This document shows positions 2,820 to 24,000 of a DNA stretch of 24,000 nucleotides, in pieces. Where the stretch lies: contig NZ_BAAANE010000003.1 in NCBI RefSeq assembly GCF_039529635.1, positions 130,137 to 154,136 on the forward strand, written 5' to 3'. The notes beneath the pieces were generated by a model. That model was given only the letters and a program-made list of their open reading frames with translations, was not told the origin of the DNA and ran no database searches. The position numbers were made by a program, and so were the translations under genes. The number at the start of each line of letters is the position of its first letter. Within the stretch, counting starts at the first letter, position 1. The stretch is from Kribbella alba. GTDB taxonomy: Bacteria; Actinomycetota; Actinomycetes; Propionibacteriales; Kribbellaceae.

Positions 2820-2830
2820 GAGTGAGTGGA

Positions 2831-3262: not shown

Positions 3263-3288
3263 GCCTCTGTTGCCCTGGGCAAGGACAT

Positions 3289-5486: not shown

Positions 5487-5566
5487 CCTCACGGTCGCCA
5501 CCCCGACACGGGAACGCTGGTGAGCCCAGCGACCCTGGCTGCTTCAGCGTCAGACCGACTGAGCTG

Positions 5567-6710: not shown

Positions 6711-6985
6711 GGGCACATCGGCGTACGGCGCTATCAGGGCTGCGCTCCGTTCGCTGACGCACTTGGGCGACGGAGCTCAAAGCGGCCGCCGTCCGCGTGG
6801 TCGCACGGCTGCTTAGGACTCGGGACCTCCGATGGCGCGAGCGTAGCCGCGCCGGACACGCTCCTTGACCGAGTCGCCGTAGGAGGACCGTGCTCGCGCC
6901 GCTGCACCAACCCGCCGCGGTGGACCAGAGCATCGATTCGTTGGGGGACATTCCGCGCCGCGGGACCGTTGAGAGGTGGAACCGA

Positions 6986-7615: not shown

Positions 7616-7730
7616 CAGGAACCCCTACTGGGTGCGAGCCGCAATCTCTGTCTCCTTCTTGAACCAGGCCGTTGGATCCCCGCGTGTGGAGGGTGTGTCA
7701 ACTGTTCAACACATCAAGGAGAAACCTGAG

Positions 7731-8312: not shown

Positions 8313-8577
8313 TTCGATGAGCCAGCTCGACCGGCTACGGCCGCCCGAGGGTCCACGGAGAAGACCTCGGTGGGGCATCGGGCCGCCGTCCGGAGCGAGC
8401 CGTCGCGCGCTGATCTGCTCGCTCTACGCCGGGGCCGGTCCGTGCCAGGTGCCGCGGCACGTCGTCACCGATCGGCCCCCGGGTTCGGCCCGGCCAGTGC
8501 ATCTGACGAGATTCGAGGGCACGAGGATGGCTGACAGACCGGTCCGCGACAACCAGATCACAGTGGGCTGGTAGCGG

Positions 8578-9739: not shown

Positions 9740-10858
9740 ATGATCGGAAAGCGTCTACCCGGAATGGTGCTCGCAGCCGCTGCCGTGACCTCGGCCGCGC
9801 TCGTCGCCACCGGACCCGCTGTCGCAGCGCCGTACCAGCAACCACACCGTCCGGCGCCGGTGCATGGTGTGGTGCACGGTGTGACCCAGACGAACCTGGT
9901 GTCCGACCAGCCGGGAAAAGCCCAGCTCACCGACCCCAACCTGGTGAACGCATGGGGCATGTCCCGTGGCGCTGACACGCCCGTTTGGGTGTCCGACACC
10001 AACACGGGCGTCTCGACGTTGTACTCCGGTGCGGTCAAGGGCAGCCCGGTCGTGGCCGCACCCGCGGGCAAGCAGTTGGTTGTCAAGGTGCCCGGCGGCC
10101 CGGTCACCGGCCAGACCTTCAACAGCGCGTCGTCCGGTTTTGTCGTGCCGGGCACCCACGCGTCGGCCAACTTCATCTTCGCCACCATCGGCGGAACCAT
10201 CGCCGCGTGGAACGGCGCGGCCGGCACTCAGGCGGTAACTGTCGCCACCACTCGCGGCGCCATTTACACCGGCCTCACCGAGGTATCAAGCCGGTTCGGT
10301 CCGCTACTGCTGGCGGCCAACTTCCACAACAACAGCGTCGATGTCTTCAATTCCTCGTTCCACAAGATCAATGCGGCAAGCATGTTCCGTGACCGGTCGC
10401 TGCCACGCGGCTACGCACCCTTCAACGTCCAGGTCCTCGGCAACGCTGTCTACGTGGCCTTCGCCAAGCAGGACGCCGACAAGCAGGACACCGCGGACGG
10501 CGCTGGTCACGGCTTCGTCGACCGGTTCACGACCATCGGCACCAACGAGCAGCGGGTCGCGTCTGCCGGCGCCCTGAACTCACCGTGGGGGCTGGAGATC
10601 GCACCACAGAAGTTCGGCAAATTCTCCAACGACCTGCTCGTCGGCAACTTCGGAGACGGGACGATCCACGCCTACAACCCGCACAGCGGCCGGTTCCTGG
10701 GCACCCTCACCGACACCAAGGGCCACGTGATCAAGATCGAGCGGCTGTGGAGCCTGCTGACCGGTGACGCTGTCGCCGGTGGGCCGAACTCGGTCTGGTT
10801 CAGCGCCGGACCCAACGACGAGCAGCACGGTCTGCTGGGCATCCTGACCGCCCGCTGA
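9740..10858 (+). CDS. Secreted TIGR03118-family protein (predicted beta-propeller), function unknown
   Basis: AAGGAG at 9724-9729 precedes the ATG. Signal peptide ends ...GPAVAAP. Motifs: QTNLVSDQPGKAQLTDPNLVNAWGMS, PVWVSDTNTGVSTLY, GYAPFNVQVLG, LNSPWGLEIAP..FG, LLVGNFGDGTIHAYNP and GPNDEQHGLLG. They match my recollection of TIGR03118. Confidence 0.7.
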   Translation: MIGKRLPGMVLAAAAVTSAALVATGPAVAAPYQQPHRPAPVHGVVHGVTQTNLVSDQPGKAQLTDPNLVNAWGMSRGADTPVWVSDTNTGVSTLYSGAVKGSPVVAAPAGKQLVVKVPGGPVTGQTFNSASSGFVVPGTHASANFIFATIGGTIAAWNGAAGTQAVTVATTRGAIYTGLTEVSSRFGPLLLAANFHNNSVDVFNSSFHKINAASMFRDRSLPRGYAPFNVQVLGNAVYVAFAKQDADKQDTADGAGHGFVDRFTTIGTNEQRVASAGALNSPWGLEIAPQKFGKFSNDLLVGNFGDGTIHAYNPHSGRFLGTLTDTKGHVIKIERLWSLLTGDAVAGGPNSVWFSAGPNDEQHGLLGILTAR

Positions 10859-10921: not shown

Positions 10922-12427
10922 ATGCGGAGTTATGAGTACGTGGTGGTGGGCGGTGGCACTGCGGGATGCGTGCTGGCGGCACGGCTGTCGGAGGACGGCG
11001 TACGGGTGTTGCTTCTCGAGGCGGGTAACGCGCGGCCGCTGGAGTCGATGGCGGTCCCGCCGGCATGGCCTAGCCTGATGGGATCCACAGCCGACTGGGC
11101 TGACCAGACCGTGCCTCAGCAAGCCACTGGCACTCGCGTGGCCTGGCCGCGCGGCCGCGGGCTGGGCGGGTCCTCGTCCATCAACGCGATGAACTTCGTG
11201 CGTGGGCATCGAGCGAGCTACGACGCCTGGGTCACCGCAGATGCGAAGGGTTGGGGCTTCGACGACTTGTTGCCGGCCTTCAAACGCAGCGAACACACCG
11301 AAGGGCGCGATCCCATGGTCCGCGGTGTCGGTGGCCCGCTGAGACCTGGGCCTGCCGTCCAGCGGCATCCCATCGCGGAGGCCGGCCTGGAGGCAGCCGA
11401 GCAAGCCGGTTTCCCGATTGCGCGGGACATCAGCGGCGGCCTGGAGGAGGGCTTCGCATTCTGCGACCTGAGCATCGTTGACGGTCGCCGCCAAAGCGCG
11501 GCGGATGCCTATCTCACCCCGATCCTGAGCCGGCCGAACCTGGATGTGGTCACCGACGCGCTGGTAGATCGGCTGCTGATGGACGGCGACCGATGCAGGG
11601 GACTGGAGTATCACGTAGGCGCCGGCACCTCCGTCGCTGAATGTACGGGTGAGGTCGTGCTCGCGGCGGGCACCATCGGCACGCCGCAACTGCTGATGCT
11701 GTCCGGGATCGGGCCGGCGGATCATCTGGAGGACCTCGGTATCGAGGTGGTTGCGGACCTGCCCGGCGTCGGCGCGAACCTGCACGACCATCCAATGTGC
11801 GGACTGGTCTACGAGTCCGCACAGCCGGTGCCGCATGGGATCAACAACCACGGCGAGGTCCAGGGCCTGCTCAGCACCGGGATCGGGGGGCACGGCCCGG
11901 ATGTGCAGATCATGTTCGTGGACGTTCCGCTGCGTGCGGAGTCGTTGCCGGGTCCCGCTATCGGTCACGGCTACGCCATCATGGTCTCGCTGATGGCGCC
12001 CTTCAGTCGCGGTTCCCTTCGCTTGGCCGGGATCAGCCCTGGTGCACATCCGTTGATCGATCCCGCGTACTACACCGACCAGCGTGACGTCGACATCGTG
12101 GTTGCAGGACTGCGCATCGCCCGCGAGATCGGCGCCGCGCCGGCCTTGTCCCCGTGGTGCGGTAGGGAGGCGCTACCCGGACCGGATGTGCGTGGCGAAG
12201 AACTGCGGAGCTACATCAGGTCGAACCTCCGCAGCTACTCGCACTACGCCGGAACCTGCGCCGTCGGTACCGATGATCGGTCCGTGGTCGACACCAGCCT
12301 GCACGTACACGGCATCAGCAACCTGAGGGTCGCCGACGCGTCGGTGATGCCCTCTCCGATCTCCGCCAACACCAACGCAACCGTCTACGCGATTGCCGAG
12401 CGAGCAGCGGAACTCATCCGTTCGTGA
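10922..12427 (+). CDS. GMC family FAD-dependent oxidoreductase (choline-dehydrogenase-like)
   Basis: N-terminal YEYVVVGGGTAGCVLAARLSED..VLLLEAG, then the GGSSSINAM signature, and a C-terminal SNLRVADASVMP....NTNATVYAIAERAAELI. Confidence 0.9.
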   Translation: MRSYEYVVVGGGTAGCVLAARLSEDGVRVLLLEAGNARPLESMAVPPAWPSLMGSTADWADQTVPQQATGTRVAWPRGRGLGGSSSINAMNFVRGHRASYDAWVTADAKGWGFDDLLPAFKRSEHTEGRDPMVRGVGGPLRPGPAVQRHPIAEAGLEAAEQAGFPIARDISGGLEEGFAFCDLSIVDGRRQSAADAYLTPILSRPNLDVVTDALVDRLLMDGDRCRGLEYHVGAGTSVAECTGEVVLAAGTIGTPQLLMLSGIGPADHLEDLGIEVVADLPGVGANLHDHPMCGLVYESAQPVPHGINNHGEVQGLLSTGIGGHGPDVQIMFVDVPLRAESLPGPAIGHGYAIMVSLMAPFSRGSLRLAGISPGAHPLIDPAYYTDQRDVDIVVAGLRIAREIGAAPALSPWCGREALPGPDVRGEELRSYIRSNLRSYSHYAGTCAVGTDDRSVVDTSLHVHGISNLRVADASVMPSPISANTNATVYAIAERAAELIRS

Positions 12428-12653: not shown

Positions 12654-13133
12654 GGTGTCGGTTGTGTCCGGGGGCCGATGGTGAGCGAACGGCAGTGGGA
12701 GCGTGTCCAGAGCTACATCCGGCGCGGTGTCGAGGAAGGCGCCCGGATCGTCGTTGGCGGACCCGGCCGCCCCGAGGGACTAGCGGACGGATATTTCGTG
12801 CGGCCGACACTGTTCGCGGACGTCACCAACGACATGACGATCGCCCGCGAGGAAATCTTCGGACCGGTGCTGTCGATCCTCACCTATCGCGACGAGGATC
12901 ACGCGGTTGAGATCGCCAACGACACCGACTACGGCCTGCATGCCTATGTGTTTTCGTCGGACATCGCGCGAGCGCATCGCATCGCGTCGCGGCTTGAGGC
13001 GGGCCGGGTGGCGATCAACGGTGGCTTTGAGCCGCTGTCCCCGTTCGGGGGGTTCAAGCAGTCGGGCATTGGGCGGGAATACGGCACCTTCGGTCTTGAG
13101 GGCTTTCTCGAACCGCGGTCTGTGATGGCCTGA
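12654..13133 (+). pseudogene. Aldehyde dehydrogenase, C-terminal third only (5'-truncated remnant)
   Basis: The frame opens directly after the in-frame TGA at 12651-12653. It reads [24 protein letters not shown]...[10 protein letters not shown]...GLHAYVFS...[15 protein letters not shown], which are ALDH C-terminal motifs. The roughly 320 aa that include the catalytic Cys region are absent. Confidence 0.75.
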
Positions 13134-13213: not shown

Positions 13214-14404
13214 TCAGCGCGCTGGGCGGCCGTCGACGGTGTAGAGGCCTTCGACGCGTGGTGAACCGGACTGGATACCGGAAACCGGGGCCACCAGGCT
13301 GCGGGTGTAGAAGGCTTGGGCGCGGAAACAGAACAGGACAGAATCGCCCGGACGCAAGGTTCGACCCTCCGTTTGCGCGAGCCGGCCGTAGAAGTCGATC
13401 ACCTGGTGGTTCTGGCTCAGGGCTGCGTCCACGGACTGCTTGACGGCTCTCTCGAAGTCGGGGCCCACCAGCGCCTGCGGTTGATAATCCACCGAACCGA
13501 TGCACAGGTAGAGTCCACCGCCGAAGCAGAACGCCGCATCGCCGTCGAGGTGGGACACCTCACTCAGATACAGCATCGCCGGACGCTCGGGAAGTTCGGC
13601 GAAAGCGTGGTAGGCACCGGTGGCGGTGAAGCCGTGACCTGGCTCTACCTGCGTGACCCCGGCGTTCGCCAAAGTGGCAAGGGTCTCTGTCGAGGTCTCA
13701 CCCGGACCGTTGACGCTGAGCCCGCTCCGGCCGCCCCGGCGCAGGCGCTCAATCGTGCGTTCCAGCGTGCCAAGATTCGGCGTCGGCACCACCTTGCGGG
13801 CCACCCGGTCGAAGGTCAACGCAGGATAGGTGGTGATCCCGCCGAAGTGACCGCCGTCCAGGGCGTCGAACCGATCGGCGACAGCCTCGATCTCGTCGGC
13901 ATCGAAGCCGCCTGCGTGGGTCTCGATCACCATCCCGTCCAGGTCATACACCCGTGCCAGCAGTCGCTGGTCCAGGCCGGCGGCGCCGGCCGCCGCGGCG
14001 GCTTCCTCGGCCTTGGTGTCGCTGAACACCGTCCAGTTCTGCGGTCGCATGGCGGCCGCGGCCGGTGCCTCGTGCCGGGGGATCTGGACCAGGTGGCCGA
14101 CGTGCCCCACCGGTTGCCCCGCGCGGTCGATCGCCCGGGCGCAGGTCATGTCGACTGCGACGAAGGAATCCACGCCGTTCTTCTTCAGGGTGTCCAGCGC
14201 GACCGGGTTCCGGCCGAACTGCTTGGTCATCGCGATGACGTCGAGTCCCAGCCGGTGCGCCTCCGAGCAGAGCGTCTCCGCGTTCGTCCCGAGCATGTCC
14301 AGGTCGATGACGTAGGTGTCGGGGGGCAGCTCACCGGACTGGTGGAGCTCGATCGCCGCGCGGGCGAACGCCGGGTTCTGCGCGACGAGGTTCTTGAGGA
14401 ACAT
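13214..14404 (-). CDS. YhfX-like PLP-dependent enzyme (alanine-racemase-N fold, type III), paralogue 1
   Basis: GAAGGGA ribosome-binding site before ATG 14404. Motifs match my recollection of E. coli YhfX: MFLKNLVAQNPAF, AMTKQFGRNP (putative PLP lysine), GHVGHLVQIPR, VEPGHGFT and SGIQSGSPRVEG. Confidence 0.7.
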   Translation of the reverse strand: MFLKNLVAQNPAFARAAIELHQSGELPPDTYVIDLDMLGTNAETLCSEAHRLGLDVIAMTKQFGRNPVALDTLKKNGVDSFVAVDMTCARAIDRAGQPVGHVGHLVQIPRHEAPAAAAMRPQNWTVFSDTKAEEAAAAAGAAGLDQRLLARVYDLDGMVIETHAGGFDADEIEAVADRFDALDGGHFGGITTYPALTFDRVARKVVPTPNLGTLERTIERLRRGGRSGLSVNGPGETSTETLATLANAGVTQVEPGHGFTATGAYHAFAELPERPAMLYLSEVSHLDGDAAFCFGGGLYLCIGSVDYQPQALVGPDFERAVKQSVDAALSQNHQVIDFYGRLAQTEGRTLRPGDSVLFCFRAQAFYTRSLVAPVSGIQSGSPRVEGLYTVDGRPAR

Positions 14405-14435
14405 GGTTTTCCCTTCAGCAGCAGGCGGCTGCGGC

Positions 14436-15233
14436 TCAGACGTCCGCTTCCTGTAGGCCGGTGATCATCGAGACGATCTCGTTCTTGTGGGTTTCCGCGG
14501 TGACCCGGGTGCCGATCTGGTTGCCACGACGCAGTACGGCGATCCGGTCAGCGATCCGGAACACCTGGTCCAGGTTGTGGCTCACCACCAAGACAGCCGC
14601 ACCTCGCTCACGCAGCCGCAGGATGAGTTCCTCCACCTTGGCGGTCTCGGCCACACCCAGTGCCGCGGTCGGCTCGTCCATCAGCACCAGGCTGCTGGCC
14701 CAGTGGGTGGCGCGGCAGATCGCGATGCCCTGACGCTGACCACCGGACAGTGCGCTGATGGTCACCCTGGCGGACGGGATGCGGACGTCGAGTGTGTCCA
14801 CCAGCGTCTGGGTCTCCCGGGCCATCCTCTTGCGGTCGAGCAGCCGCAGCGGTCCCTTCACCAGTTCGCGGCCGAGGAACATGTTCATGTAGACCGGCTG
14901 GTCGTCGACCAGGGCGAGGTCCTGGTAGACCACCTCGACGCCCTTGCGGCGGGCGTCCGAAGCGTCGGTGAAGGAAACCTGCTCGCCACCGAGCCAGATC
15001 TCGCCCTCGCTCGGTTTGTAGAGGCCCGAGATCATCTTCACCAGGGTGGATTTGCCCGCTCCGTTGTCGCCGACCAGTGCGACGATCTCGCCCGCGGCGA
15101 CCTCGAGGTCGAACCGCCGGACCGCGACCACGCCACCGAAGTGCTTCGCCAGTCCGATCAGCCGCAACGGCGGCACGGACGGATCCGCCACCGCGGTCGT
15201 CCCGACCAGCTCAAGGTTCTCTGCCATGGTCAC
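14436..15233 (-). CDS. ABC transporter ATP-binding protein, single nucleotide-binding domain (sugar/CUT2-like, FrcA-type size)
   Basis: Walker A GDNGAGKST, signature LSGGQRQ, Walker B LVLMDEPTAAL, H-loop VVSHNL. GTG 15233 overlaps the upstream stop (GTGA). ATG 15227 is an alternative start. Confidence 0.9.
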   Translation of the reverse strand: MTMAENLELVGTTAVADPSVPPLRLIGLAKHFGGVVAVRRFDLEVAAGEIVALVGDNGAGKSTLVKMISGLYKPSEGEIWLGGEQVSFTDASDARRKGVEVVYQDLALVDDQPVYMNMFLGRELVKGPLRLLDRKRMARETQTLVDTLDVRIPSARVTISALSGGQRQGIAICRATHWASSLVLMDEPTAALGVAETAKVEELILRLRERGAAVLVVSHNLDQVFRIADRIAVLRRGNQIGTRVTAETHKNEIVSMITGLQEADV

Positions 15234-16459
15234 CTCACCTCTTCACGTACGTCGTACGAAACCAGCGGGGCGGAGCCGTCGGAGGCCCAGACACCTTCTA
15301 CCCGCGGCGATCCCGAGGAGATCCCCGAGATCGCGGCGGTCAGTCCACGGGTGACGAACACCTGCGGCCGGAAGCCGAACATCACCGTGTCGCCCACCGC
15401 CACGTCGTTTCTGCCACCCAGCGGGATCGGCGCGTAGTAGTCGATGGCCTCGGGCGCAGGCATGTCGACCGGCAGCACCGGCGCACTCGCGATCCCCTTG
15501 TCCAGCGCGTCCCGGGTGACGACGATCGCGGAGGTGCTCGAGCGGCCGAGGACGGGGTCGACGTACAGGCCGCCACCGAAGGTGTAGGCCTCGTCGTTCC
15601 AGAGGTGCGAGACCTCGCTGACATAGACGATCGCGGGTTCCTCGGCGAGGTCCTCGACGGCATGCCACGGGGTCGTTCCGGTCAGGCCGTGCCCCGGCTC
15701 CACCTGGGTGGCGCCGGCCTCAGCGAGCCGCTCGAGCATCGCGGTGGACGTCGTACCGGGGGCGTTCAGCTCCAGGTCGGTGCGACCCGCGGCTCGCAGT
15801 ACGGCAGCGGCGGCGCGAAGCGTCTCGAGGTTCTGCGTCGTCTTGACCGTGCGGTTCTCGGCGTCGAAGAGCGTGGCGGGGAAGGTGGTGATGCCCGCGA
15901 ACCGCGCGCCGTCGAGCGCATCGAGGCGATCCGCCAACGCCGCCACGTCGGCGGCGGGAAAGCCGCCCTCGTGCCCGCGGTAGTACCGGTCGTCCGGGCC
16001 GATCAGGCGCGCGAGCAGATCCTGGGTCCGTCCGAGGGCAGCGCTCGCCGCGGCCGCCTCAGAGGCCTTCTCGTCGTTGAACACAGTCCAGTACTGCGGT
16101 TCGAGCGCCGCGCCTGCGGCGGCTTGGTATCGGGGAATCTGAACCAGATGGCCTAGGTGGCCGGTGCGAAGACCACCGGATGCGGCGGCGACCGCGCACT
16201 CCAGGTCCACACCCACCGCATGGGTGATCCCCGACTCGACCAGCCTGCGCGACACGTCGGGATTTCGGCCGAGTTGCTTCACCATCGCGAAGGTCTTCAA
16301 CCCCAGGCGGTCCGCCTCGGTCCGGATCGTGGTTGCGTTCCGCCCGACCGCGTCCAGGTCGATCGCATAGCAGTTCGCCGGCAGCCGGCCACTGCGGTGC
16401 AGGCTCGCGGCAGCCTCGAGGAGGGCCGGATTACGGCGTCGTAGCAGGTCAAGGAACAT
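15230..16459 (-). CDS. YhfX-like PLP-dependent enzyme, paralogue 2 (409 aa)
   Basis: ATG 16459 is preceded by AAGGAAG and lies 15 nt after the permease stop. The product begins MFLDLLRRRNPALLEAAASLHRSGRLP, followed by AMVKQLGRNP, GHLGHLVQIPR, VEPGHGLT and SGISSGSPRVEG. The listed 640-aa ORF start at 17152 is an Arg/Pro-rich artefact that overlaps the permease gene. Confidence 0.7.
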   Translation of the reverse strand: MFLDLLRRRNPALLEAAASLHRSGRLPANCYAIDLDAVGRNATTIRTEADRLGLKTFAMVKQLGRNPDVSRRLVESGITHAVGVDLECAVAAASGGLRTGHLGHLVQIPRYQAAAGAALEPQYWTVFNDEKASEAAAASAALGRTQDLLARLIGPDDRYYRGHEGGFPAADVAALADRLDALDGARFAGITTFPATLFDAENRTVKTTQNLETLRAAAAVLRAAGRTDLELNAPGTTSTAMLERLAEAGATQVEPGHGLTGTTPWHAVEDLAEEPAIVYVSEVSHLWNDEAYTFGGGLYVDPVLGRSSTSAIVVTRDALDKGIASAPVLPVDMPAPEAIDYYAPIPLGGRNDVAVGDTVMFGFRPQVFVTRGLTAAISGISSGSPRVEGVWASDGSAPLVSYDVREEVR

Positions 16460-16473
16460 TGTCAGGTCTTCCT

Positions 16474-17445
16474 TTACTGGCTCTTCTTGCCGCGGAGCGA
16501 GAACGACACCGCGATGAGGATGATGATGGCGCGCGCGATCATCTGCTGGGACACGGTTAGACCGGCCAGGACCAGGCCGTTGTTCAGCATGCTCATCAGC
16601 AGACTGCCGATCAGGGCACCGACGACCGACCCCTTGCCGCCGAACAGGCTGGTCCCGCCGACGATCGCGGCGGCGATCACGGTCATCAGGTCGGCCTCGC
16701 CCAGCGTGTACCGGGCGCCCTGAAGGCGGCCCGCGTAGAGCAGACCCGCCAGGGCGGCCGTCATGGCACTGCCGACCAGCACCATCAACCGGACCCGGTT
16801 CACCTTGATACCGCTCACCCGGGCGGCGGACGAGTTGTTGCCCACCGCAAGGACATGCGCGCCGTACCGCCGCTGGCGCAGGAACATCCACCCGACCGCG
16901 ATCGCGACGGCGGTCCACCAGATGAGGATCGGGATGCCCAGCACGCTGCCACCCCCGAAGAGCGACACGAAGGTGGCGTTGGTCACCGGAACCGATTGCA
17001 GGTCCGTGAGCTGCCTGGCCAGACCTGCCACCAGCCCCATCGTCGCCAGCGTGACGAGGAAGGACGGCAGCCGGACCATGGTGACGAAGAGGCCGTTGAG
17101 GAGGCCGACCAAGGCGCCGACGAGGAGGCCGGCGGCCGCGGCGAGCAACCACTGGTCGGTGCTCCGCAACGTCACGGCCGTGACCAGTGCGGAGAGGGCA
17201 ACGACCGATCCGATCGACAGGTCGATCTCACCGGCGCTCAGGACGAACACCATCCCGACGGCCATCACGGTCACCGGCGCCGCCTGGATCACGATGTTCG
17301 CGAGGTTGGTGCCGGTCAGGAAGTACTGCGTCTGGGTGATCGCGAAGTACAGGAACACCAGCACGAAGCCGACGTACACGACATAGTTCTGCAGTCCCAG
17401 CCGGCGCCACCAAGGCGCCTGCATCAGTTCGGCCGAGGTCGTCAT
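16474..17445 (-). CDS. ABC transporter permease (ribose/xylose-type, BPD_transp_2 family)
   Basis: 323 aa with about 9-10 hydrophobic segments. The pattern SAGEIDLSIGS...TLATM... is typical of RbsC-like permeases. ATGA overlap with the upstream binding-protein gene. Confidence 0.85.
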   Translation of the reverse strand: MTTSAELMQAPWWRRLGLQNYVVYVGFVLVFLYFAITQTQYFLTGTNLANIVIQAAPVTVMAVGMVFVLSAGEIDLSIGSVVALSALVTAVTLRSTDQWLLAAAAGLLVGALVGLLNGLFVTMVRLPSFLVTLATMGLVAGLARQLTDLQSVPVTNATFVSLFGGGSVLGIPILIWWTAVAIAVGWMFLRQRRYGAHVLAVGNNSSAARVSGIKVNRVRLMVLVGSAMTAALAGLLYAGRLQGARYTLGEADLMTVIAAAIVGGTSLFGGKGSVVGALIGSLLMSMLNNGLVLAGLTVSQQMIARAIIILIAVSFSLRGKKSQ

Positions 17446-18632
17446 CGCCCGGCTCCGCCCGCTGCGGCGATGTCAGTCGGAAGGGACACTCCGAAGGTCG
17501 ACTCCCAGCCCTTGGCCAGGTTGTCCTTGGTGACCGGGAAAGCGGGAACGATCACCATCGGCGGGGCCTTCTTGCCCAGCAGACCGTACGCCCCGGCGAC
17601 CGCGAGCGAGTTGCCGAACTCGACGGCCAGTGTGGACGTCATTTCCTTGATCATGCCCCCCTTGGCCATCTCGAGGGCATTGGTGTTGCCGAGGTCGATC
17701 GTGTAGACGCCGACGTCAGTCCGCCCGGCGTTCCGCAGCGCCGCCACGACCCCCTCGGCCGCGGTGTCCCAGGGAGCGAAGATCGCTTTGATGTCCGGAT
17801 GCCTGGCGATCATCGCCGCGGCCACGTCCTCGACCTTGGCCGGATCGGCCATCGGGACCCGATCCACCACCTCGATGCCGGGATACTTCGACTTCAGGGT
17901 CTGCTCGAACGCCTTCTCCCGCTGGTTGGTCACGTAGAAGTTGGCGTCATAGTAGATCTGGCCGATCTTGCCCTTGCCGCCGAGACCGTTGCCGACGGCA
18001 TCGGCCGTCGCGTTGCCCAGGCCGCTCAGGTCGTACGTCACCAGGCTGACGTACTCCTTGCCTGCCTTGTAGTTCTGCGGCTTCACGCTGGCGAAGACCA
18101 GCTTGACACCCTGGTCGACCGCAGGCTTGAAGGTGGCCACGTCGGCTACCGGGTCGATGGCGATCGTGATGATGACGTCCGGCTTCAGCGCGAGGACGCT
18201 GCGGACGTTGTTGGCCAGCGTGGTCTGGTCGAAGTTGGCCGCGGTCGTCGAGACGATCTTGATGCCCAGCGCCTTGTACGTCTGCTCCACCCCCTTGCCG
18301 AGGGCGTTCATGAACGGGGAGGCCTCCTGCCACACGATCGCGGCGCGGTAGTTGCCCGCCTTGACCCGCTGGACCTCGGCAGAGGTCAGATTCAGCTGCG
18401 TGTACCAAACTGGCTTCTCCCCGTCGGGACCGCGAGTGTCCGTGCTGGCCGGCAGCGCCACCGGCGAGACGTAGCGGGACAGACCTCCCGGGTCCGGGGT
18501 GACGACGTTGGCGATGGGAGTGCCGCCGGCTCCGGCCGCCGTGGCACTGTCGTCGGTCGCGTTGACCGAGCAGGCGCCTAGCAGCAAACTCGCGGTGATT
18601 GCGGCGACCACCGTGATTCGCGTTCTGGTCAT
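17442..18632 (-). CDS. Sugar-type (periplasmic binding protein type I) ABC substrate-binding lipoprotein, copy B
   Basis: Signal peptide with lipobox LLLGAC and AAGGAG before ATG 18632. It is clearly a paralogue of the adjacent gene (GEKP...VKAGNYRAA, GVKLVFA, YDA.F.VTN, KYP.I..V, HPD, AL.NAG, LGKKAP). Confidence 0.8.
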   Translation of the reverse strand: MTRTRITVVAAITASLLLGACSVNATDDSATAAGAGGTPIANVVTPDPGGLSRYVSPVALPASTDTRGPDGEKPVWYTQLNLTSAEVQRVKAGNYRAAIVWQEASPFMNALGKGVEQTYKALGIKIVSTTAANFDQTTLANNVRSVLALKPDVIITIAIDPVADVATFKPAVDQGVKLVFASVKPQNYKAGKEYVSLVTYDLSGLGNATADAVGNGLGGKGKIGQIYYDANFYVTNQREKAFEQTLKSKYPGIEVVDRVPMADPAKVEDVAAAMIARHPDIKAIFAPWDTAAEGVVAALRNAGRTDVGVYTIDLGNTNALEMAKGGMIKEMTSTLAVEFGNSLAVAGAYGLLGKKAPPMVIVPAFPVTKDNLAKGWESTFGVSLPTDIAAAGGAGR

Positions 18633-18717
18633 TCAGAGACTCCTTGTTGTGCTGGCTGGGAGCCAGACGATCCGATCAGGGGAGTGGGCATCCGGCTGGG
18701 GGACCGGCGCCACGGTG

Positions 18718-19875
18718 TCAGCCGAGCGCCTCCTTCACGGCCTTGGGCAACTGCTGGTCCCACGCGGAGTACCCCTCGGTGAGAGTGCTCTTCGTGACCG
18801 TCACCGCTTCGACGATGCCGAACTCGGGCGCCTTCTTGCCGAGGATGGCCAGGGCTGCCGACACTGCCATCGCCCTGCCGAAGTCGTACGCCCGGTCACA
18901 GGCGAGCGCGACCGTCACGCCACCACTGGCCATGTTCGTGGCCATGGTGTCGTCCAGGTCGAGGGTGACCAGTTTGGTCCGTGTGTTCCCGGCGTTGTTC
19001 AGCGCCGCCAGGACCCCCTGAGCAGGCTGCGCCCAGCTCGTGTAGATGCCGCCGAGGTCGGGATGCTGGGCGATCATCGCGTTCGCGATGTCCTCGGCCT
19101 TGTTGGGGTCGGAGAAGCCCTGCTGGGCAACGATCTTGATGTTCGGGTACTTCTGCTGCAACGTCTTCTTGAACGCGGAGTCGCGCAGGTTGGTGACGTG
19201 GAACTGTGCGTCGTAGAACAGAATCCCGACGTTGCCCTCGCCGCCCATGGCCTCGCCCAGTGCCTCGGCGGCGCGACGTCCCAGCTGGAAGAGGTCGCCG
19301 GTGACGATTGCTTGGTACTGCTGCGGGTAGGTGAACCCGATCGGCGCCTGGTCGGCGAAGACGAGTTTCACGCCCTTGACGACGGCCGGCCGGTAGGCGG
19401 CGGCGCCTGTGGTCGGATCGACGGCCTGCCCGAGGATGACGTCGGGGTTGGTGGCCAACGCGTTCTGGATCTGGTTCGCCTGGGTCGCGGGGTCGAACTT
19501 CGCGTCGGCGGTGGCGACCACCCGGATCCCCAGGTTCTTGAACTGGTCCAGCGCGCCGCGCTGGACGGCGCTCGACCAGGCCGACATCTCGTGCCACAGC
19601 AGCGCGGCCCGATAGTTGCCGGCCTTGACCTTCGCGGCGTCGGCGGGACTCAGGGCGAGGTCGGTGACTCGCGTCGGTTTCTCGCCGTGCGGGCCCACCG
19701 TGTCGGTCGCGGCCATGTCGATCACCGTGTGGGAACCGACCGCTCCTTGAGCCTGCTTCCCGCCGCCATTGCAGGCGGCGAGCAGCAGGCAGAGCACGAT
19801 CGCCGGTGCGACGACCAGCTTGTTGACCTTCATACTCGTTCCCTTCGCGACAGTCCGGAGGCGGTGCCGGGTCAT
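18718..19875 (-). CDS. Sugar-type ABC substrate-binding lipoprotein, copy A
   Basis: Lipobox LLLAAC. Start is either ATG 19875 (ATGA overlap with the M20 stop) or ATG 19833 (MKVNKL..., preceded by GAAGGGA). Confidence 0.8.
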   Translation of the reverse strand: MTRHRLRTVAKGTSMKVNKLVVAPAIVLCLLLAACNGGGKQAQGAVGSHTVIDMAATDTVGPHGEKPTRVTDLALSPADAAKVKAGNYRAALLWHEMSAWSSAVQRGALDQFKNLGIRVVATADAKFDPATQANQIQNALATNPDVILGQAVDPTTGAAAYRPAVVKGVKLVFADQAPIGFTYPQQYQAIVTGDLFQLGRRAAEALGEAMGGEGNVGILFYDAQFHVTNLRDSAFKKTLQQKYPNIKIVAQQGFSDPNKAEDIANAMIAQHPDLGGIYTSWAQPAQGVLAALNNAGNTRTKLVTLDLDDTMATNMASGGVTVALACDRAYDFGRAMAVSAALAILGKKAPEFGIVEAVTVTKSTLTEGYSAWDQQLPKAVKEALG

Positions 19876-21158
19876 CGTCCGGTCCCGTCGTCGAGGTCGC
19901 GGACACCGCAGTGCTCCGCGATGAACCGGACATAGACGGCCACGGCCGCGAGGTACTCGTCGACCGGCACGTGCTCGTCGAAGGTGTGGCAGTGACTGAT
20001 GTCGCCCGGCGCGAGGTAGACCGTCGGAATCCCCAGGTCTCGCTCGAAGAAGGGGCCTTCCGACCAGTACGGCCCGGCCGCGATGTCACCGCGGTCCGGC
20101 AGGAACTCCTTCACCGTGGCCTGCAGGTGGGCCACGACGTCGAGCTTCGGGTCAGTGACGAGGGCGGATCCGCCGACCGCGTGATCGCGAGTGGCCGGAT
20201 ACGACGTACCGACCTCGATGCGCTCGTCGGTGACCGCGCCGCGGATCACGTCCTCGAGCTCCGCGCGCGCGGCGTCCAGGTCCTCGTCGGGCGTGAGTTT
20301 GCGGATCAGGCTGATCCGGCATTCCCCTGGTACGGCGATGTAGCCACCGCCGGACATCCCGGTGACAAGCAGCGAGGGTGCTCCGATCAGGGGATCGGCC
20401 GGCCGGGTCGACAGGTCGTCGCCGTACGCCCACAGGGCGCGGAGCACCTCGTCCGCGGGACGGAGGGCGTCGACGCCGAGCTCCGGCGTACCGAAGTACG
20501 CGGCCTTGCCAGTCAGGGTCACGTCGGTGATGAAGAACCCCATGTGCGACGTGAAGACCTGCATGGTGGTCGGCTCGCCGTAGATGACCAGGTCCGCCGA
20601 GATCTCCTGGTCCCCGTCCCGTGCGACGGCGATGGCGCGGCGGACGCCATCGCTGGTCCCGCTGCCCTCCTCGCCGCTCTCCTCGTCGGCGAGGAACAAC
20701 GCGGTGACCGGCGCGACCGGTGCGAGTCCGGCCCGGTGGAGCTGCTGGAGTGCCGCGATGGCGACCGCAACCCCCGCCTTGCAGTCGGCCGTGCCGCGAC
20801 CCCAGACGGCGCCGTCGATCACCGGCGCGGCGAACGGGCTCTCCCGCTCGGTGCCGGCCCAGTGCTCCTCCCAACCACGGACATGCACCGTGTCCAGGTG
20901 CGAGGCGAGCACCAGACCGCGGCGGTTGGTCGGGTCGCCCACCGACCAGCGAGCCCAGGTGTTCGCCCGTCCGGGCGCGAAGCTGTCGACGTGCACCTCG
21001 GTCGTGACCCGGCGAAGCTGCTCCGCCGCCCAGTGGGCGACGGCCTCCTCCTCACCAGTGACGCTCGGCACCGACACCGCGCCGCGCAGTACGTCGATCG
21101 CGCTTCCGTCGTCCGCTGCTGCGGCGAGGCGAGCGGCGACATCGTCGCTGATGGTCAT
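19872..21158 (-). CDS. M20 family metallohydrolase (ArgE/DapE/ACY1/CPG2-type deacylase or peptidase)
   Basis: Motifs: LASHLDTV, GRGTADCKAG and FLADEESGEEGSG (catalytic/metal-binding Glu pair). CAGGAG ribosome-binding site before ATG 21158. Confidence 0.8.
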   Translation of the reverse strand: MTISDDVAARLAAAADDGSAIDVLRGAVSVPSVTGEEEAVAHWAAEQLRRVTTEVHVDSFAPGRANTWARWSVGDPTNRRGLVLASHLDTVHVRGWEEHWAGTERESPFAAPVIDGAVWGRGTADCKAGVAVAIAALQQLHRAGLAPVAPVTALFLADEESGEEGSGTSDGVRRAIAVARDGDQEISADLVIYGEPTTMQVFTSHMGFFITDVTLTGKAAYFGTPELGVDALRPADEVLRALWAYGDDLSTRPADPLIGAPSLLVTGMSGGGYIAVPGECRISLIRKLTPDEDLDAARAELEDVIRGAVTDERIEVGTSYPATRDHAVGGSALVTDPKLDVVAHLQATVKEFLPDRGDIAAGPYWSEGPFFERDLGIPTVYLAPGDISHCHTFDEHVPVDEYLAAVAVYVRFIAEHCGVRDLDDGTGR

Positions 21159-21190
21159 GTTGGCTCCTGAAGATTTGCGTGGTCGATGGG

Positions 21191-22150
21191 TCAGTGAGCG
21201 GGGATGACTTCCGCGACGCCGGCCGGGAGTCCTAACTCGTGGAGTGCGAGTGCGACGGCGCCGTGGAGTGAGGCGTCCTGGGTGAACCGCGCCGGCTCGA
21301 GCTCCGGAGGGAAGGGCACGGCCCGGGTGAGGCGGGCGCCGATCACCGGCAGGATGGTGTCGGCGGAGGCCATCAGCCCACCCCCGATCACGACCCGTTC
21401 TGGATCCAGCAGGATCGCGACGTTGGCAATCGCGGTACCGAGGGCATCGAGGGCCTCGCCGACCAGTCGCCTGGCCGGCTCGTCCGTGCGGGCGAAGAGT
21501 TCGGCGGTGGTCACCGGCGCACCGAGGGCAGTAGAGGCTCGCTCTCCGAGTGCCTTGCCGCCGACGATCTCTTCCAGCGGAGCGCGCCCGGCTGCGATGT
21601 CCGCAGGGAGGCTGGGCTCGACCGCGAAGTACCCGATCTCTCCAGCAGCCTGGTGTGCCCCGGCGATGACCCCGCCGGCGGTCGTCACGGCGGCCGCGAC
21701 ACCGGTGCCCAGACTGACATACAGCCCGGGATCGACCCCCTGCAAGGCACCGAATCGCAGCTCGGCGAAGGCGCCCGCCCGGACGTCGTTCGCGACCGGC
21801 ACGAACGGTACGCCGAGGCCGTCCTCGAGGCGCCCGGCCAGTGCCAGGCGTTCCCAGCCCGGCAGGTTCGGCGCCAATAGGATTCCATCCGGTCGGATGA
21901 CACCGGGGCAGACGGCCGCGTGCCCGGCCACCGGTACGCCGTACCGACGGTCCGAAAGTTCCGTGAGCAGCTTTACGGCCGACAACACGCGCTCGATCGC
22001 TTGGTCGGGACCGGCCTCTGCGCGCGTCTGGAGCCGGGTCCGGTCAAGGATCCGCCCGGCATCGTCGGCCAGCGCCACGTCGATCTTCGTACCGCCGACA
22101 TCGATCGCGACGACGTGCCGCGGCTGGTCAAGCGGAGGCGTCTGGGTCAT
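21191..22150 (-). CDS. ROK family sugar kinase
   Basis: N-terminal VVAIDVGGTKIDVAL ATP-binding motif, 319 aa, no N-terminal HTH. The start codon abuts the palindromic operator and has no Shine-Dalgarno. Confidence 0.8.
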   Translation of the reverse strand: MTQTPPLDQPRHVVAIDVGGTKIDVALADDAGRILDRTRLQTRAEAGPDQAIERVLSAVKLLTELSDRRYGVPVAGHAAVCPGVIRPDGILLAPNLPGWERLALAGRLEDGLGVPFVPVANDVRAGAFAELRFGALQGVDPGLYVSLGTGVAAAVTTAGGVIAGAHQAAGEIGYFAVEPSLPADIAAGRAPLEEIVGGKALGERASTALGAPVTTAELFARTDEPARRLVGEALDALGTAIANVAILLDPERVVIGGGLMASADTILPVIGARLTRAVPFPPELEPARFTQDASLHGAVALALHELGLPAGVAEVIPAH

Positions 22151-22151
22151 A

Positions 22152-22180
22152 ATTAGGAGTCTTTAATAAAGAGTCCTAAT
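22152..22180. promoter_or_regulatory. 29-bp AT-rich near-perfect palindrome, candidate ROK-repressor operator
   Basis: ATTAGGAGTCTTTA-A-TAAAGAGTCCTAAT. The arms match at 13 of 14 positions (mismatch at 22159/22173). It starts 2 nt from the ROK kinase ATG. Confidence 0.55.
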
Positions 22181-22187
22181 GTGTCAA
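22160..22187 (-). promoter_or_regulatory. Candidate promoter of the minus-strand operon (near-leaderless transcript)
   Basis: On the minus strand: a perfect TTGACA (22187-22182), a 16-nt spacer, then TAAAGA (22165-22160), ending 9 nt before the ATG. The -10 element is imperfect because it lacks the final T. Confidence 0.3.
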
Positions 22188-22267
22188 CTCCCTTCCTCCC
22201 GGCGGGGGGATGCTCGATCATGGACCGGCAGCGCCAGCCGCCGACAACGACGACCCCGAGGTGACCG

Positions 22268-23503
22268 ATGTCCCCGACCGAGCGGCCACCGTCAAGGCTG
22301 ACCGCGGCCGTTGCGCCGTCACTGCTCCGAGAGATGAACCAGCGCCTGCTCCTGGACCTGCTGTTCAGCTCCGGCCCGGCGACCCGGCCACAGCTCGCGC
22401 GCGACGCCGGACTCTCACAACCGACCGTATTCGCCGCTCTATCGGGTCTCGAGAAGGCTGGGCTCGTGCGCCCCGCCGGACGGCCCGAGGTCAGCTCCGG
22501 GCGTCCCGCGGTGCTCTACGAGGCAGACCCCTCGGCGGGCTCGGTGGTCGGCGTCGACATCGGCCGGAACTGGCTGCACCTCGTCCTCGCGGACCTGGCC
22601 GGCGACGAAGTCGCACGTCTCGATGTCCGCAACACCGCTCGGACTTCGCGCTCGTTGGTGGACCAGGTCAGCGTGGCCGTCCAGCAGCTCACCGCACGGG
22701 CCGGCCTGACCGCTGAGGCTGTCACCCACACCGTCGTCGGGTCGCCAGGCGTACTCGATCCGCACCGGGGGAGGGTCAGGTACGCGGGCAACCTGCCGGG
22801 CTGGCAGCGCGCCGGCCTTGCCGAGGCACTTGCCGACAAGCTGGGCATGAGTCTGACCATCGACAACGACGCCAACCTCGCCGCCTTGGGCGAGTACACC
22901 TTCGGTGCCGCACGGAAGGCGCGGCAGTTCGCCTACCTGCACATCGGTACCGGTGTAGGGCTGGGTTTGGTCATCGACGGTGAGCTCTACCGGGGTTTCA
23001 ACGGATCGGCCGGTGAGGTCGGCTACCTGCCGATCCTGGGCGAACCGCCCTCGGGCGAACCGCAGTGGCCCCAGCGGGGAATGCTCGAGATGGCGCTCGC
23101 AGCCGATGCTGTCGTCCGGTATGCCACCGAGGCGGGGATGGCCGACAACCTCACGGCGGAGGACGTCTTCCTTGCCGCTGGCAACGGCGATCCCGCGGCG
23201 CGGCAGGCTGTCGTCACAGAGGCCCGGGTCCTGGCTCGCCTGGTCACGGGTATCTGTGCCTTCTTCGACCCGGAGTTGGTGGTGGTCGGTGGCGGTGTCG
23301 GTCAGAATCTCGCTCAGCTCGAGCACCCGATGCGGGAGGAGATGGCCCGCTTCACGCCGATGCGACCGCAGATGGCAGCCGGGGACCTCGGCGCCGACGC
23401 GGTCGTCCGTGGGGCGATCGCGACGGGCATCCATATCGCCCGCGAGATCGTCTTCACCTCGCAGCTGGCCGGTACGGCCGCTGGCGGCGACGAGGCAGGA
23501 TGA
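22268..23503 (+). CDS. ROK family transcriptional regulator (N-terminal wHTH plus ROK sugar-binding domain)
   Basis: LLREMNQRLLLDLLFSSGPATRPQLARDAGLSQPTVFAALSGLEKAGLV is followed by VVGVDIGRNWLHLVLADL and the rest of the ROK fold. GAGGTGA ribosome-binding site before ATG 22268. Confidence 0.85.
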   Translation: MSPTERPPSRLTAAVAPSLLREMNQRLLLDLLFSSGPATRPQLARDAGLSQPTVFAALSGLEKAGLVRPAGRPEVSSGRPAVLYEADPSAGSVVGVDIGRNWLHLVLADLAGDEVARLDVRNTARTSRSLVDQVSVAVQQLTARAGLTAEAVTHTVVGSPGVLDPHRGRVRYAGNLPGWQRAGLAEALADKLGMSLTIDNDANLAALGEYTFGAARKARQFAYLHIGTGVGLGLVIDGELYRGFNGSAGEVGYLPILGEPPSGEPQWPQRGMLEMALAADAVVRYATEAGMADNLTAEDVFLAAGNGDPAARQAVVTEARVLARLVTGICAFFDPELVVVGGGVGQNLAQLEHPMREEMARFTPMRPQMAAGDLGADAVVRGAIATGIHIAREIVFTSQLAGTAAGGDEAG

Positions 23504-23716: not shown

Positions 23717-24000
23717 GTGGCTCGTGGAGGAGAGCTCGCGGGGGGTGATGGCGGATCACAGCGATGGAGACCTACCGCGGGACTGTTCGGTCGCGACACT
23801 GAACTCGAACAGCTTGGCGGCTTCATCGCCACCGCCGCTGTCAGCGGCGGTGGTCTGCTCCTGACCGGAGACGCGGGCATCGGCAAGTCGGTGCTCCTGG
23901 ATGCCACTGCGGCCCGGGCGACGGCACAAGGAACCCGGGTGTTGCGGGCCGCCGGTGTGGAGTTCGAGGCGGACATGAGTTTCGCGGGACTCCACCAGTT
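23717..24000 (+). CDS. Large ATP-binding LuxR-type (LAL/AAA ATPase) regulator, N-terminal part; 3' end outside the window
   Basis: The frame is open to the window end. GLFGRDTELEQLGGFIATAAVSGGGLLLTGDAGIGKSVLLDA is the typical N-terminus with Walker A. GTG 23717 is the first canonical start in this frame after the upstream stop. Confidence 0.6.
   Translation, partial: MARGGELAGGDGGSQRWRPTAGLFGRDTELEQLGGFIATAAVSGGGLLLTGDAGIGKSVLLDATAARATAQGTRVLRAAGVEFEADMSFAGLHQ

Follow-up and report, generated by a model that had tools for sequence, protein, structure and literature searches.

Gene content and control region of the operon

The window analysed here is a 24,000-nucleotide stretch of the Kribbella alba contig NZ_BAAANE010000003.1 (positions 130,137 to 154,136 of the forward strand). 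It contains an operon of eight minus-strand genes, in which two paralogous pyridoxal 5'-phosphate (PLP) proteins of the YhfX family are combined with a sugar-type ABC importer of the CUT2 class, an M20 hydrolase, and a ROK kinase; a ROK-family repressor gene is divergent from them (Table 1). The cluster corresponds to no described pathway and is best filed as a probable amino-sugar catabolic operon around an enzyme family without known function. An earlier reading of the bare sequence (the sequence-only reading) had listed the same nine genes in the same order, and open reading frame (ORF) listing, translation, and family scans agreed with it. The tight packing that it had described, with 4-nt overlaps or gaps of at most 85 nt, was also borne out: the intergenic distances in transcription order were 32, -4, 85, -4, 14, -4, and 31 nt, and 117 nt separated the kinase gene from the divergent repressor gene. 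One coordinate was corrected, the start of YhfX-2 being the ATG at 16459. A 640-aa ORF (15230-17152) was rejected as YhfX-2, because its additional 5' part runs into the permease gene and is spurious, a consequence of the high G+C content (65-71% in the window).

Table 1. Features of the YhfX operon and its control region in the window.
Feature	Position	Strand	Description
ROK-family repressor	22268..23503	+	winged helix-turn-helix and ROK sensor domain, 411 aa; divergent from operon
-35 box TTGACA, predicted operon promoter	22182..22187	-	TTGAC invariant in nine-locus alignment
29-bp palindrome, probable operator	22152..22180	no strand	repeat search and conservation
ROK sugar kinase	21191..22150	-	319 aa, no helix-turn-helix; operon gene 1; Pfam ROK
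M20 metallohydrolase, ArgE/DapE-type deacylase	19872..21158	-	428 aa; Pfam Peptidase_M20
Binding protein A, CUT2-type lipoprotein	18718..19875	-	385 aa; Peripla_BP_4
Binding protein B, CUT2-type lipoprotein	17442..18632	-	396 aa; Peripla_BP_4
ABC permease, single gene, presumed homodimer	16474..17445	-	323 aa; BPD_transp_2
YhfX-2	15230..16459	-	409 aa; main-clade YhfX; between permease and ATPase genes
ABC ATPase, one nucleotide-binding domain	14436..15233	-	265 aa; ABC_tran
YhfX-1	13214..14404	-	396 aa; divergent second-copy paralogue; last gene of operon

Shine-Dalgarno-like purine runs were detected ahead of five of the seven internal genes, and the other two share 4 nt with the gene before them. 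The search for promoters or terminators inside the operon gave nothing convincing, terminator-like matches occurring at chance level (5 versus 3.5 expected), and no intrinsic terminator or hairpin followed YhfX-1 (z = -0.08).

The control region contains an AT-rich palindrome with two 14-nt arms that lie 1 nt apart and are 93% complementary, reading ATTAGGAGTCTTTA A TAAAGAGTCCTAAT on the plus strand. No second copy occurs in the window, and shuffled sequence is expected to give 0 matches. The operon strand reads TTGACA-N3-TTAGGACTCTTTATTAAAGACTCCTAA-TT-ATG; the -35 box is followed after 18 nt by AAGACT, a putative -10 box, and after a further 7 nt by the ATG, and the palindrome overlaps the promoter spacer and the putative -10. 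In an alignment of nine loci from at least five actinobacterial lineages, including Kribbella, Planosporangium, two Pseudonocardia, Jatrophihabitans, and a Solirubrobacterales metagenome-assembled genome (MAG), the palindrome core, TTGAC, and the kinase ATG were kept at fixed spacing. The palindrome is probably the operator of the divergent ROK repressor, and TTGACA is the putative -35 box of the operon promoter. Because of the distance between promoter and ATG, and because no ribosome-binding site was found upstream of the kinase gene, a leaderless mRNA that would begin at the kinase ATG is implied, its promoter being occluded by the operator.

The repressor-type gene noted earlier as divergent was supported by Pfam ROK (153 bits) and by MarR, TrmB, and HTH_24 matches at residues 21-70 of its product. 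The ATP motif of this protein is degenerate (DIGRN) and a zinc-binding Cys motif is missing; the former would be as expected for a ROK repressor, whereas the kinase keeps DVGGT. Orthologues of the repressor are divergent from the kinase gene in several related loci, which are numbered here with the prefix L (L001, L002, L003, L059, L069, L073, L078, L083, and L085).

For the kinase (Pfam ROK, 136 bits), the best NCBIfam matches were NanK, ROK glucokinase, and allose kinase, all far under their cut-offs, and the best PDB matches were a glucokinase (3vov) and ManNAc kinases. The ATP motif DVGGT is at residue 17 and NDV, with the catalytic Asp, at residue 121; GEIGY stands in place of ExGH, and the CxCGxxGC zinc motif is absent. 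The same replacement (GE[IV]G[YF]) and the same absence were seen in nearly all ROK proteins of the clusters, kinases and regulators alike (window and L001-L085), and only Inquilinus-type regulators kept both ExGH and CxCGxxGC. The DxGGTK ATP motif is retained in many helix-turn-helix-bearing ROK proteins encoded next to YhfX; several of them, which adjoin paired YhfX and SIS-protein genes, have it intact and could be bifunctional.

The M20 protein (Pfam Peptidase_M20, 101 bits) belongs to the ArgE/DapE subfamily and carries the metal-binding and catalytic motifs HLD, GRGTAD, DEE, and GEPT and the C-terminal His. It scored 139.6 bits against TIGR01910, for which the cut-off is 217.6, and its best PDB match was DapE (7uoi, E 1e-24). 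The transporter has the components of a CUT2 importer (Peripla_BP_4, BPD_transp_2, and a sugar-type ATPase) and deviates from it in having a one-domain ATPase and not a fused pair. Binding protein A (Peripla_BP_4, 144 bits) has the lipobox LAAC at residues 32-35 and binding protein B (122 bits) has LLGAC at residues 17-21. Their nearest solved structures, matched at E 4e-17 or worse and 4e-15 or worse, respectively, were too distant for a ligand to be deduced; because A and B are 42% identical to each other, two related ligands are probable. The permease (BPD_transp_2, 125 bits) resembles GguB, RbsC, and AraH (E 1e-57 to 1e-60, under the cut-offs). The ATPase (ABC_tran, 105 bits) contains Walker A, LSGG, and Walker B motifs, has the sugar ATPases YtfR, XylG, MglA, and RbsA as best equivalogs, and aligns only to the N-terminal half of these proteins of about 500 aa. 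The one-domain form (about 260 aa) is found in actinobacterial and alphaproteobacterial clusters, and a fused 505-aa form in those of Firmicutes and Chloroflexota (L061, 11182-12699).

The two YhfX paralogues

The YhfX family is defined by Pfam PF21279 and PF01168 and is described in COG as "predicted amino acid racemase". The assignment of both PLP proteins to this family by the sequence-only reading was confirmed by profile searches. YhfX-1 scored 75.1 bits against YhfX-like_C and 38 bits against Ala_racemase_N, and YhfX-2 scored 77.3 and 61.5 bits; the gathering cut-off of YhfX-like_C is 27 bits, and both matches cover profile positions 1-97 of 97. Homology to Escherichia coli YhfX (PDB 4KBX) extended from end to end (phmmer, residues 1-390), with E values of 1e-70 for YhfX-1 and 5e-64 for YhfX-2. 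YhfX-1 is about 38% identical to the E. coli protein, and its AlphaFold2 model (pLDDT 94) superposed on 4KBX with a TM-score of 0.91. The closest sequences to YhfX-1 were a Kribbellaceae MAG protein (98% identical) and a Kribbella sp. protein (89%). No NCBIfam model names either paralogue. In the literature, no functional study was found for YhfX, its E. coli yhf neighbours, or Php, in agreement with the earlier statements that this fold-type III family has no assigned function and that the E. coli yhf cluster is obscure.

Lys61, within MTKQ or MVKQ, did not vary among 60 sequences, and its counterpart in 4KBX is the MTKQ lysine; it is predicted to be the lysine that forms the Schiff base with PLP. 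The phosphate loop PGxTS and the motif E254-P-G-H257 are family-wide, and YhfX-2 carries them as PGTTS and EPGH together with MVKQ at Lys61. YhfX has in common with known fold-type III PLP enzymes the TIM-barrel and beta-domain fold, the Schiff-base lysine, and the phosphate-binding loop; unlike the alanine, ornithine, and lysine racemases, the D-threonine aldolase/D-serine dehydratase group, and the diaminopimelate and ornithine decarboxylases, it has a C-terminal domain model of its own. The next folds after 4KBX were D-threonine aldolases, beta-hydroxyaspartate aldolase, D-threo-3-hydroxyaspartate dehydratase, diaminopimelate decarboxylases, and alanine racemases (TM-score 0.6-0.7, 12-19% identity), with TM-scores of 0.64-0.71 for the first three and identities of 16-19% at a TM-score of about 0.7 for the D-threonine aldolase/D-serine dehydratase group. 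When the family profile was compared with the PDB, only 4KBX was significant, and BhcC (E 0.018) and D-threonine aldolase (E 0.23) were matched over the barrel only. Because 4KBX alone reached significance at the sequence-profile level, YhfX is, as judged from sequence, its own branch of fold type III.

Two known identities were considered and rejected. For D-threonine aldolase or DSD1-type D-serine dehydratase, membership of which, together with a match of the whole cluster to a described pathway, the sequence-only reading had said would overturn its view, there was no significant sequence match and no C-terminal Pfam domain of the D-ser_dehydrat type. For alanine racemase (Alr/DadX), only the N-terminal barrel model matched; Ala_racemase_C was absent, and no NCBIfam racemase model matched at E <= 0.01.

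The xPG motif of strand 8 also separates YhfX from the racemases. It reads E254-P-G-H257 in YhfX, R209-P-G in E. coli Alr, E268-P-G-R in LysA, and Q-P-G-S in D-threonine aldolase; the comparison with E. coli Alr and LysA is made at motif level, as hhalign and MAFFT alignments were uninformative. In fold-type III decarboxylases a Glu contacts the pyridine N1, and in Geobacillus stearothermophilus alanine racemase the corresponding residue is Arg219. The second catalytic base of alanine racemase is Tyr265'. In both alanine racemase and ornithine racemase, an Arg hydrogen-bonds the pyridine N1, and ornithine racemase keeps this motif Arg while using Cys164 as second base (PMC13397332). The Glu of the YhfX EPGH motif would, by this mapping, be placed at the pyridine N1. 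Because the motif has Glu and not Arg, YhfX is probably not a plain amino-acid racemase, and its motifs suggest that it may favour quinonoid chemistry (elimination, aldol reaction, decarboxylation, or epimerisation of a poorly acidic centre) over classical racemisation. The label "racemase" is accordingly doubtful for YhfX.

YhfX-1 and YhfX-2 share 48% identity. A neighbour-joining tree of 88 YhfX sequences placed YhfX-2 in a widespread clade whose genes lie between the permease gene (upstream) and the ATPase gene (downstream). YhfX-1 formed a small separate clade with L001-L005 and L006, and a main-clade copy was present alongside everywhere except in L006, a 16.8-kb contig on which no neighbour family was detected. 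Judged by gene order, L083 and L085 also have the two-copy layout, and a second, independent clade of extra copies was observed in Alphaproteobacteria (L025 and L038). Because most two-YhfX loci also carry two or three binding proteins, the duplication may reflect a pair of related substrates or of successive steps. YhfX-1 and YhfX-2 might also form a heterodimer.

Recurrence of the cluster and its relatives

The YhfX family is compact: out of 1.84 billion representatives, 209 clusters at 50% identity belong to it at E <= 1e-30. A one-genome-per-species scan yielded at least 579 stretches that encode YhfX, and the 79 best distinct loci were analysed. Neighbours were identified by tblastn with the window proteins and by label-free clustering of neighbouring ORFs after removal of antisense shadows, and were annotated with Pfam and NCBIfam. 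Within 8 kb of YhfX, the CUT2 permease and ATPase were found in 46 of the 79 loci, with the exact order permease-YhfX-ATPase in 30; ROK proteins were present in 44 and M20 proteins in 27. Less frequent neighbours were a two-domain SIS protein (16 loci), an APC permease (11), and a Php/phosphotriesterase (PTE) protein (7).

The sequence-only reading had singled out the combination of YhfX, M20, ROK, and CUT2 as one that might recur, and ABC, ROK, and M20 were indeed found together in 20 of the 79 loci, from at least three phyla. The combination was also recovered in a search started from M20, whose orthologues (48-84% identical, for example 48% in Ensifer adhaerens and 74% in Micromonospora) lie in the same cluster. 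Because this search leads back to the same cluster, the association between YhfX and M20 is reciprocal. Carriers belong to Actinomycetota, Alphaproteobacteria (Inquilinus, Mesorhizobium, Labrys, and Ensifer), Chloroflexota, and Firmicutes. Identical nine-gene synteny was observed in Kribbella, Planosporangium, Micromonospora, and a metagenome contig (L001, L002, L085, and L083), and partial versions in dozens of species; because the same synteny recurs in this way, the gene arrangement is not due to chance. A dimethylglycine-dehydrogenase-like gene beside the Ensifer cluster was discarded as a component, as it is not conserved elsewhere.

The kinase and the transporter vary among the relatives. 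The kinase is of the ROK family in Actinobacteria; in Firmicutes (Lachnospiraceae, with CUT2) it is BadF-type, with NagK_SO3507 as best NCBIfam match, and in Anaerolineales a BadF kinase accompanies YhfX together with a CUT1 transporter and a LacI regulator. In an alphaproteobacterial subgroup (L055, L058, L076, and L077), the kinase is of the PfkB family and weakly matches FrlD, the regulator is a GntR/UTRA protein similar to FrlR, and an amidase is also encoded.

The relatives also encode enzymes that are not found in the window. The SIS proteins of 16 loci matched NagB-II (SO3506) or the GlmS isomerase domain best, with E values of 1e-46 to 1e-55 (157-187 bits), and matched FrlB at 1e-6 to 1e-10 (25-38 bits). 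The SIS gene often overlaps the YhfX stop codon by 4 nt (L022, L042, L053, and L054). In L070 and L075, a classical NagB (Pfam Glucosamine_iso, 36-39% identical to E. coli NagB) is encoded inside the operon instead of SIS; a fumarylacetoacetate-hydrolase-family gene lies past NagB in L070 (3577-4356). NagA gave no tblastn match (E. coli NagA, E 1e-8) in the window or in 82 related loci, and neither MurQ nor KdgK was found in any locus examined. The sequence-only reading had seen no SIS or deglycase gene, which is correct for the window; SIS genes are present in relatives.

Other contexts of YhfX lack these features. In alphaproteobacterial MAGs (L009, L011-L018, L027, L028, L040, and L049), a different conserved neighbourhood without a sugar transporter comprises a LysR regulator, two class I/II aminotransferases, hydantoinase B/oxoprolinase-family genes, a thiamine pyrophosphate enzyme, and a luciferase-like monooxygenase, and in Gaiellales YhfX is paired with an APC permease and an aminotransferase. 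The E. coli cluster yhfZY-yhfX-yhfW-php-yhfUTS (L080, K-12 positions 3499910-3512344) is convergent with frlABCDR, with 151 nt between frlR and yhfS. Its YhfX is a full-length homologue of YhfX-1 and YhfX-2 with the same two Pfam domains, and its Php is 27-34% identical to the Php-type hydrolases of 7 of the 79 loci and of the close relative L083. However, the E. coli cluster has no CUT2 transporter, ROK kinase, or M20 protein and instead encodes YhfT/YhfU, the phosphopentomutase-like mutase YhfW, and the aminotransferase YhfS; none of YhfT, YhfU, YhfW, and YhfS matched a neighbouring ORF of the loci. Given the contexts in alphaproteobacterial MAGs, Gaiellales, and E. coli, the YhfX family is not tied to one pathway.

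In L083, whose YhfX-1 is 82% identical, the operon is extended by a third binding protein, a PTE/Php hydrolase, and a GNAT fragment. M20 and Php were ruled out as mutually exclusive analogues, since L083 carries both. This locus also has a HAD type II hydrolase gene past the repressor gene (355-1107).

Proposed pathway and alternatives

The variation among relatives can be explained by a route that ends at glucosamine-6-phosphate (GlcN-6-P). Because the kinases and the deaminases displace one another among the clusters, and because NagA, MurQ, and KdgK are absent, the comparison points to GlcN-6-P as the exit metabolite, with the kinase, the amide hydrolase, and YhfX acting upstream of it. We therefore tentatively favour, at somewhat less than an even chance, an inducible operon for uptake and catabolism of a modified amino sugar (a hexosamine derivative) by a Nag-like route; its substrate, each biochemical step, and the step order are what we infer, and gene content, synteny, family membership, and operator conservation are what was observed. 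Any single substrate that might be named for it is unlikely.

Under this proposal, when substrate is lacking the divergent ROK repressor would bind the 29-bp palindrome over the promoter of the probably leaderless transcript. When substrate is present, the two lipoprotein binding proteins would feed the CUT2 importer, formed by a homodimeric permease and the single-domain ATPase, and the ROK kinase would phosphorylate the sugar in the cytoplasm. The M20 enzyme, as a stand-in for NagA, would strip an N-acyl (or aminoacyl) group and so bare a primary amine, which PLP chemistry needs. YhfX could then carry out a PLP-dependent C-alpha reaction on the freed C2 amine to give GlcN-6-P; candidate reactions are C2 epimerisation of mannosamine-6-phosphate and beta-elimination or replacement of the 3-O-lactyl substituent of muramic acid-6-phosphate. 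A GlcN-6-P deaminase, encoded outside the window and in-cluster in relatives, would release fructose-6-phosphate and ammonia. It is somewhat unlikely, though worth stating, that the YhfX proteins are the first fold-type III PLP enzymes to act on a hexosamine (phosphate) itself, as a 2-epimerase of mannosamine-6-phosphate and GlcN-6-P or a muramic-acid etherase, within a widespread and unrecognised route that includes M20.

This proposal is supported by the three sugar-type uptake and kinase solutions that accompany YhfX (CUT2 with ROK, CUT2 with BadF/NagK-like, and LacI with CUT1 and BadF) and by the M20 protein, which fills the deacylase slot where NagA is absent. The described Nag pathway (NagK/NagE, NagA, NagB or NagB-II, and NagC) follows a common logic of ROK-family regulator, sugar kinase, and deacylase step, and GlcN-6-P deaminases of either type are present in related clusters. 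The operon differs from it in that the window has no such deaminase, M20 occupies the slot of NagA, one or two extra PLP enzymes are present, and the CUT2 transporter has two binding proteins; no protein of the clusters reaches any Nag equivalog cut-off.

Several observations weigh against the Nag-like proposal. Homologues of SIS, Php, and APC were sought in the window and none was found, and NagB was not found there either, so that the deaminase end point is borrowed from relatives. Because YhfX served as bait for collecting the 79 loci, and because their ranking follows similarity to YhfX-1, the frequencies are biased. The usual substrates of M20 enzymes are N-acyl amino acids whose alpha-carboxylate is free, and we know of no described M20 amino-sugar deacetylase and of no PLP-dependent hexosamine epimerase or etherase. 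The nearest solved folds after 4KBX act on beta-hydroxy-D-amino acids, which favours an amino-sugar acid, and the amino-acid permease and aminotransferase of Gaiellales and the hydantoinase B context of alphaproteobacterial MAGs suit an amino-acid-like substrate better.

The alternative that survives best, although unlikely, is a route for an amino-sugar acid, that is, a 2-amino-2-deoxy-aldonate such as D-glucosaminate, its N-acetyl form, or its lactone. M20 would deacylate the substrate, and YhfX would take the resulting beta-hydroxy-alpha-amino acid, or the 6-phosphate of it, and serve as a fold-type III ammonia-lyase or aldolase, yielding 2-keto-3-deoxygluconate (KDG) or 2-keto-3-deoxy-6-phosphogluconate, with the kinase acting before or after. 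M20 chemistry suits an N-acyl alpha-amino acid, and the aldolases and the dehydratase nearest to YhfX in fold fit the reaction. Further points in its favour are the APC amino-acid permeases of 11 loci, the weak match of the Php relatives to a phospho-furanose lactonase model (E 1e-9 to 1e-14, far under the cut-off), and the presence of Edd and Eda beside one cluster (L054). A precedent is the Ong pathway of Pseudoalteromonas, in which the deacetylase OngB, the fold-type III PLP enzyme OngC, and KdgK turn GlcNAc1A into KDG-6-phosphate, and which has in common with the operon, as here proposed, a deacetylase, a fold-type III PLP enzyme acting on a sugar-like amine, a sugar kinase, a dedicated transporter, and a repressor (PMC9537276). 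As the Ong pathway is almost restricted to Gammaproteobacteria (PMC9537276), it is plausible that other phyla have a corresponding route. In contrast to the YhfX clusters, however, OngB belongs to the amidohydrolase superfamily and not to M20; OngC is D-amino-acid-deaminase-like, distantly related to D-serine deaminase and D-threonine aldolase, and by this description set apart from YhfX; the kinase KdgK is of the PfkB family, the transporter is of the SSS type, and the end product is KDG-6-phosphate (PMC9537276), whereas YhfX clusters have GlcN-6-P deaminases and no KdgK. The two unrelated types of GlcN-6-P deaminase embedded in the clusters would be needless for such a route, and Eda was limited to a single locus. 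It is also disfavoured by the missing D-ser_dehydrat-type domain of YhfX, by the kinases, since ROK and BadF kinases are known for aldoses and not for aldonates, and by the strictly anaerobic carriers (Lachnospiraceae and Anaerolineae), in which an O2-dependent source such as the products of lytic polysaccharide monooxygenases is less easily accommodated.

Distinctly improbable is a pathway of the frl/fra type for Amadori or Heyns glycated amino acids, in which the kinase would form a 6-phosphate, a deglycase encoded elsewhere would free hexose-6-phosphate and the amino acid, M20 would trim a peptide or amide, and YhfX would racemise or degrade the released or epsilon-linked amino acid. The frl/fra systems likewise bring together a transporter and a kinase with a hydrolase acting on the amino-acid moiety; in E. 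coli, the yhfX cluster directly adjoins frlABCDR, and the alphaproteobacterial subgroup with the FrlR-like regulator, the amidase, and the PfkB kinase would fit. SIS is the deglycase fold, and deglycation of a Heyns (2-substituted glucosamine) phosphate might in principle be within reach of an enzyme like NagB-II. However, neither an FrlB/FraB-type deglycase nor an FrlD/FraD PfkB kinase is present in the window, whose kinase is of another family and which has no SIS gene, and PLP enzymes are missing from frl/fra operons. In the ORFs that neighbour YhfX in the loci, FrlA had no match and FrlB two weak ones (20-25% identity, E about 4e-10). Because the SIS proteins score far higher as NagB-II/GlmS than as FrlB (below 40 bits), and because classical NagB is embedded in their place in two loci, an amino sugar is favoured over an Amadori compound. 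In addition, alpha-glycated amino acids have a secondary amine, from which no PLP aldimine can form, leaving the most conserved enzyme without a clear role.

The least probable of the alternatives is a peptidoglycan-derived conjugate of sugar and amino acid (MurNAc-L-Ala, or muramic delta-lactam where Php is present), with M20 as amidase and YhfX as a true racemase: the fit of M20 to an N-acyl-L-amino acid with a free carboxylate, the annotation of YhfX as "alanine/amino-acid racemase" in its source records, the inclusion of MurNAc/GlcNAc kinases among BadF-type kinases, the co-occurrence of Php and M20 in L083, and the ubiquity of the substrate in soil, gut, and sludge, which matches the distribution, all suit it, but no locus has the MurQ etherase, YhfX has Glu and not Arg in xPG with neither the Ala_racemase_C domain nor an NCBIfam racemase match, and use of L-Ala needs no dedicated racemase.

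The comparison with described pathways ended without a match for the cluster, and the earlier suggestion of a substrate that is both sugar and amine was strengthened: an amino sugar is favoured, an amino-sugar acid comes second, and the glycated (Amadori) or opine-like compounds named in the sequence-only reading are weakest.

Outside the operon, the window contains several genes of other kinds. On the plus strand, a 151-aa ORF (12678-13133) matches Pfam Aldedh positions 311-461 of 461 and is what remains of an aldehyde dehydrogenase gene, its 3' third; an intact GMC oxidoreductase gene (10922-12427, +) ends 250 nt before it, and the operon, which is convergent with it, ends 81 nt away. Because this remnant occupies the position past YhfX-1 where L083 has its extension, the cluster end downstream of YhfX-1 appears to be rearranged, and the window would have lost or never gained the extra genes of L083. 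Further away, the stretch 6890-9648 encodes a sigma factor of the extracytoplasmic function type (6890-7615), a Lipoprotein_15 repeat protein (7572-8312), and, at 8578-9648, a regulator of the GerE/LuxR type. Of ten larger ORFs tested upstream, five had no Pfam match (637-1332, 1438-1977, 2813-3976, 4145-4771, and 5520-6113), nor did the ORF at 9740-10858, downstream of the sigma-factor/LuxR stretch; these may be spurious ORFs of high G+C. At about 23800-24000 (+), an open frame with a P-loop (...GRDTELEQLGGFIATAAVSGGGLLLTGDAGIGKSVLL...) runs off the window end and, by eye, resembles the N-terminus of large ATP-binding LuxR-type regulators.

YhfX, an orphan of E. coli K-12 with a solved structure, is repeatedly wired into sugar uptake operons in this sample. 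The cluster is widespread and its regulation is conserved. Three kinase families, two GlcN-6-P deaminases, M20 in the place of NagA, and a conserved operator yield a short list of candidate substrates. Mannosamine, galactosamine, and muramic acid are major amino sugars of soil, and their bacterial catabolism is incompletely known. For oxidised chitin monomers, one route has been described (Ong), which is nearly confined to Gammaproteobacteria (PMC9537276). If the YhfX enzymes do act on a hexosamine (phosphate) itself, with M20 as a substitute for NagA, Actinomycetota, Alphaproteobacteria, Chloroflexota, and Firmicutes would consume mannosamine, muramic acid, or oxidised hexosamines through an unrecognised and widespread route. 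A function would then be assigned to the orphan YhfX of E. coli, and a new PLP reaction on an amino sugar would constitute a new enzyme activity and improve annotation in hundreds of genomes.

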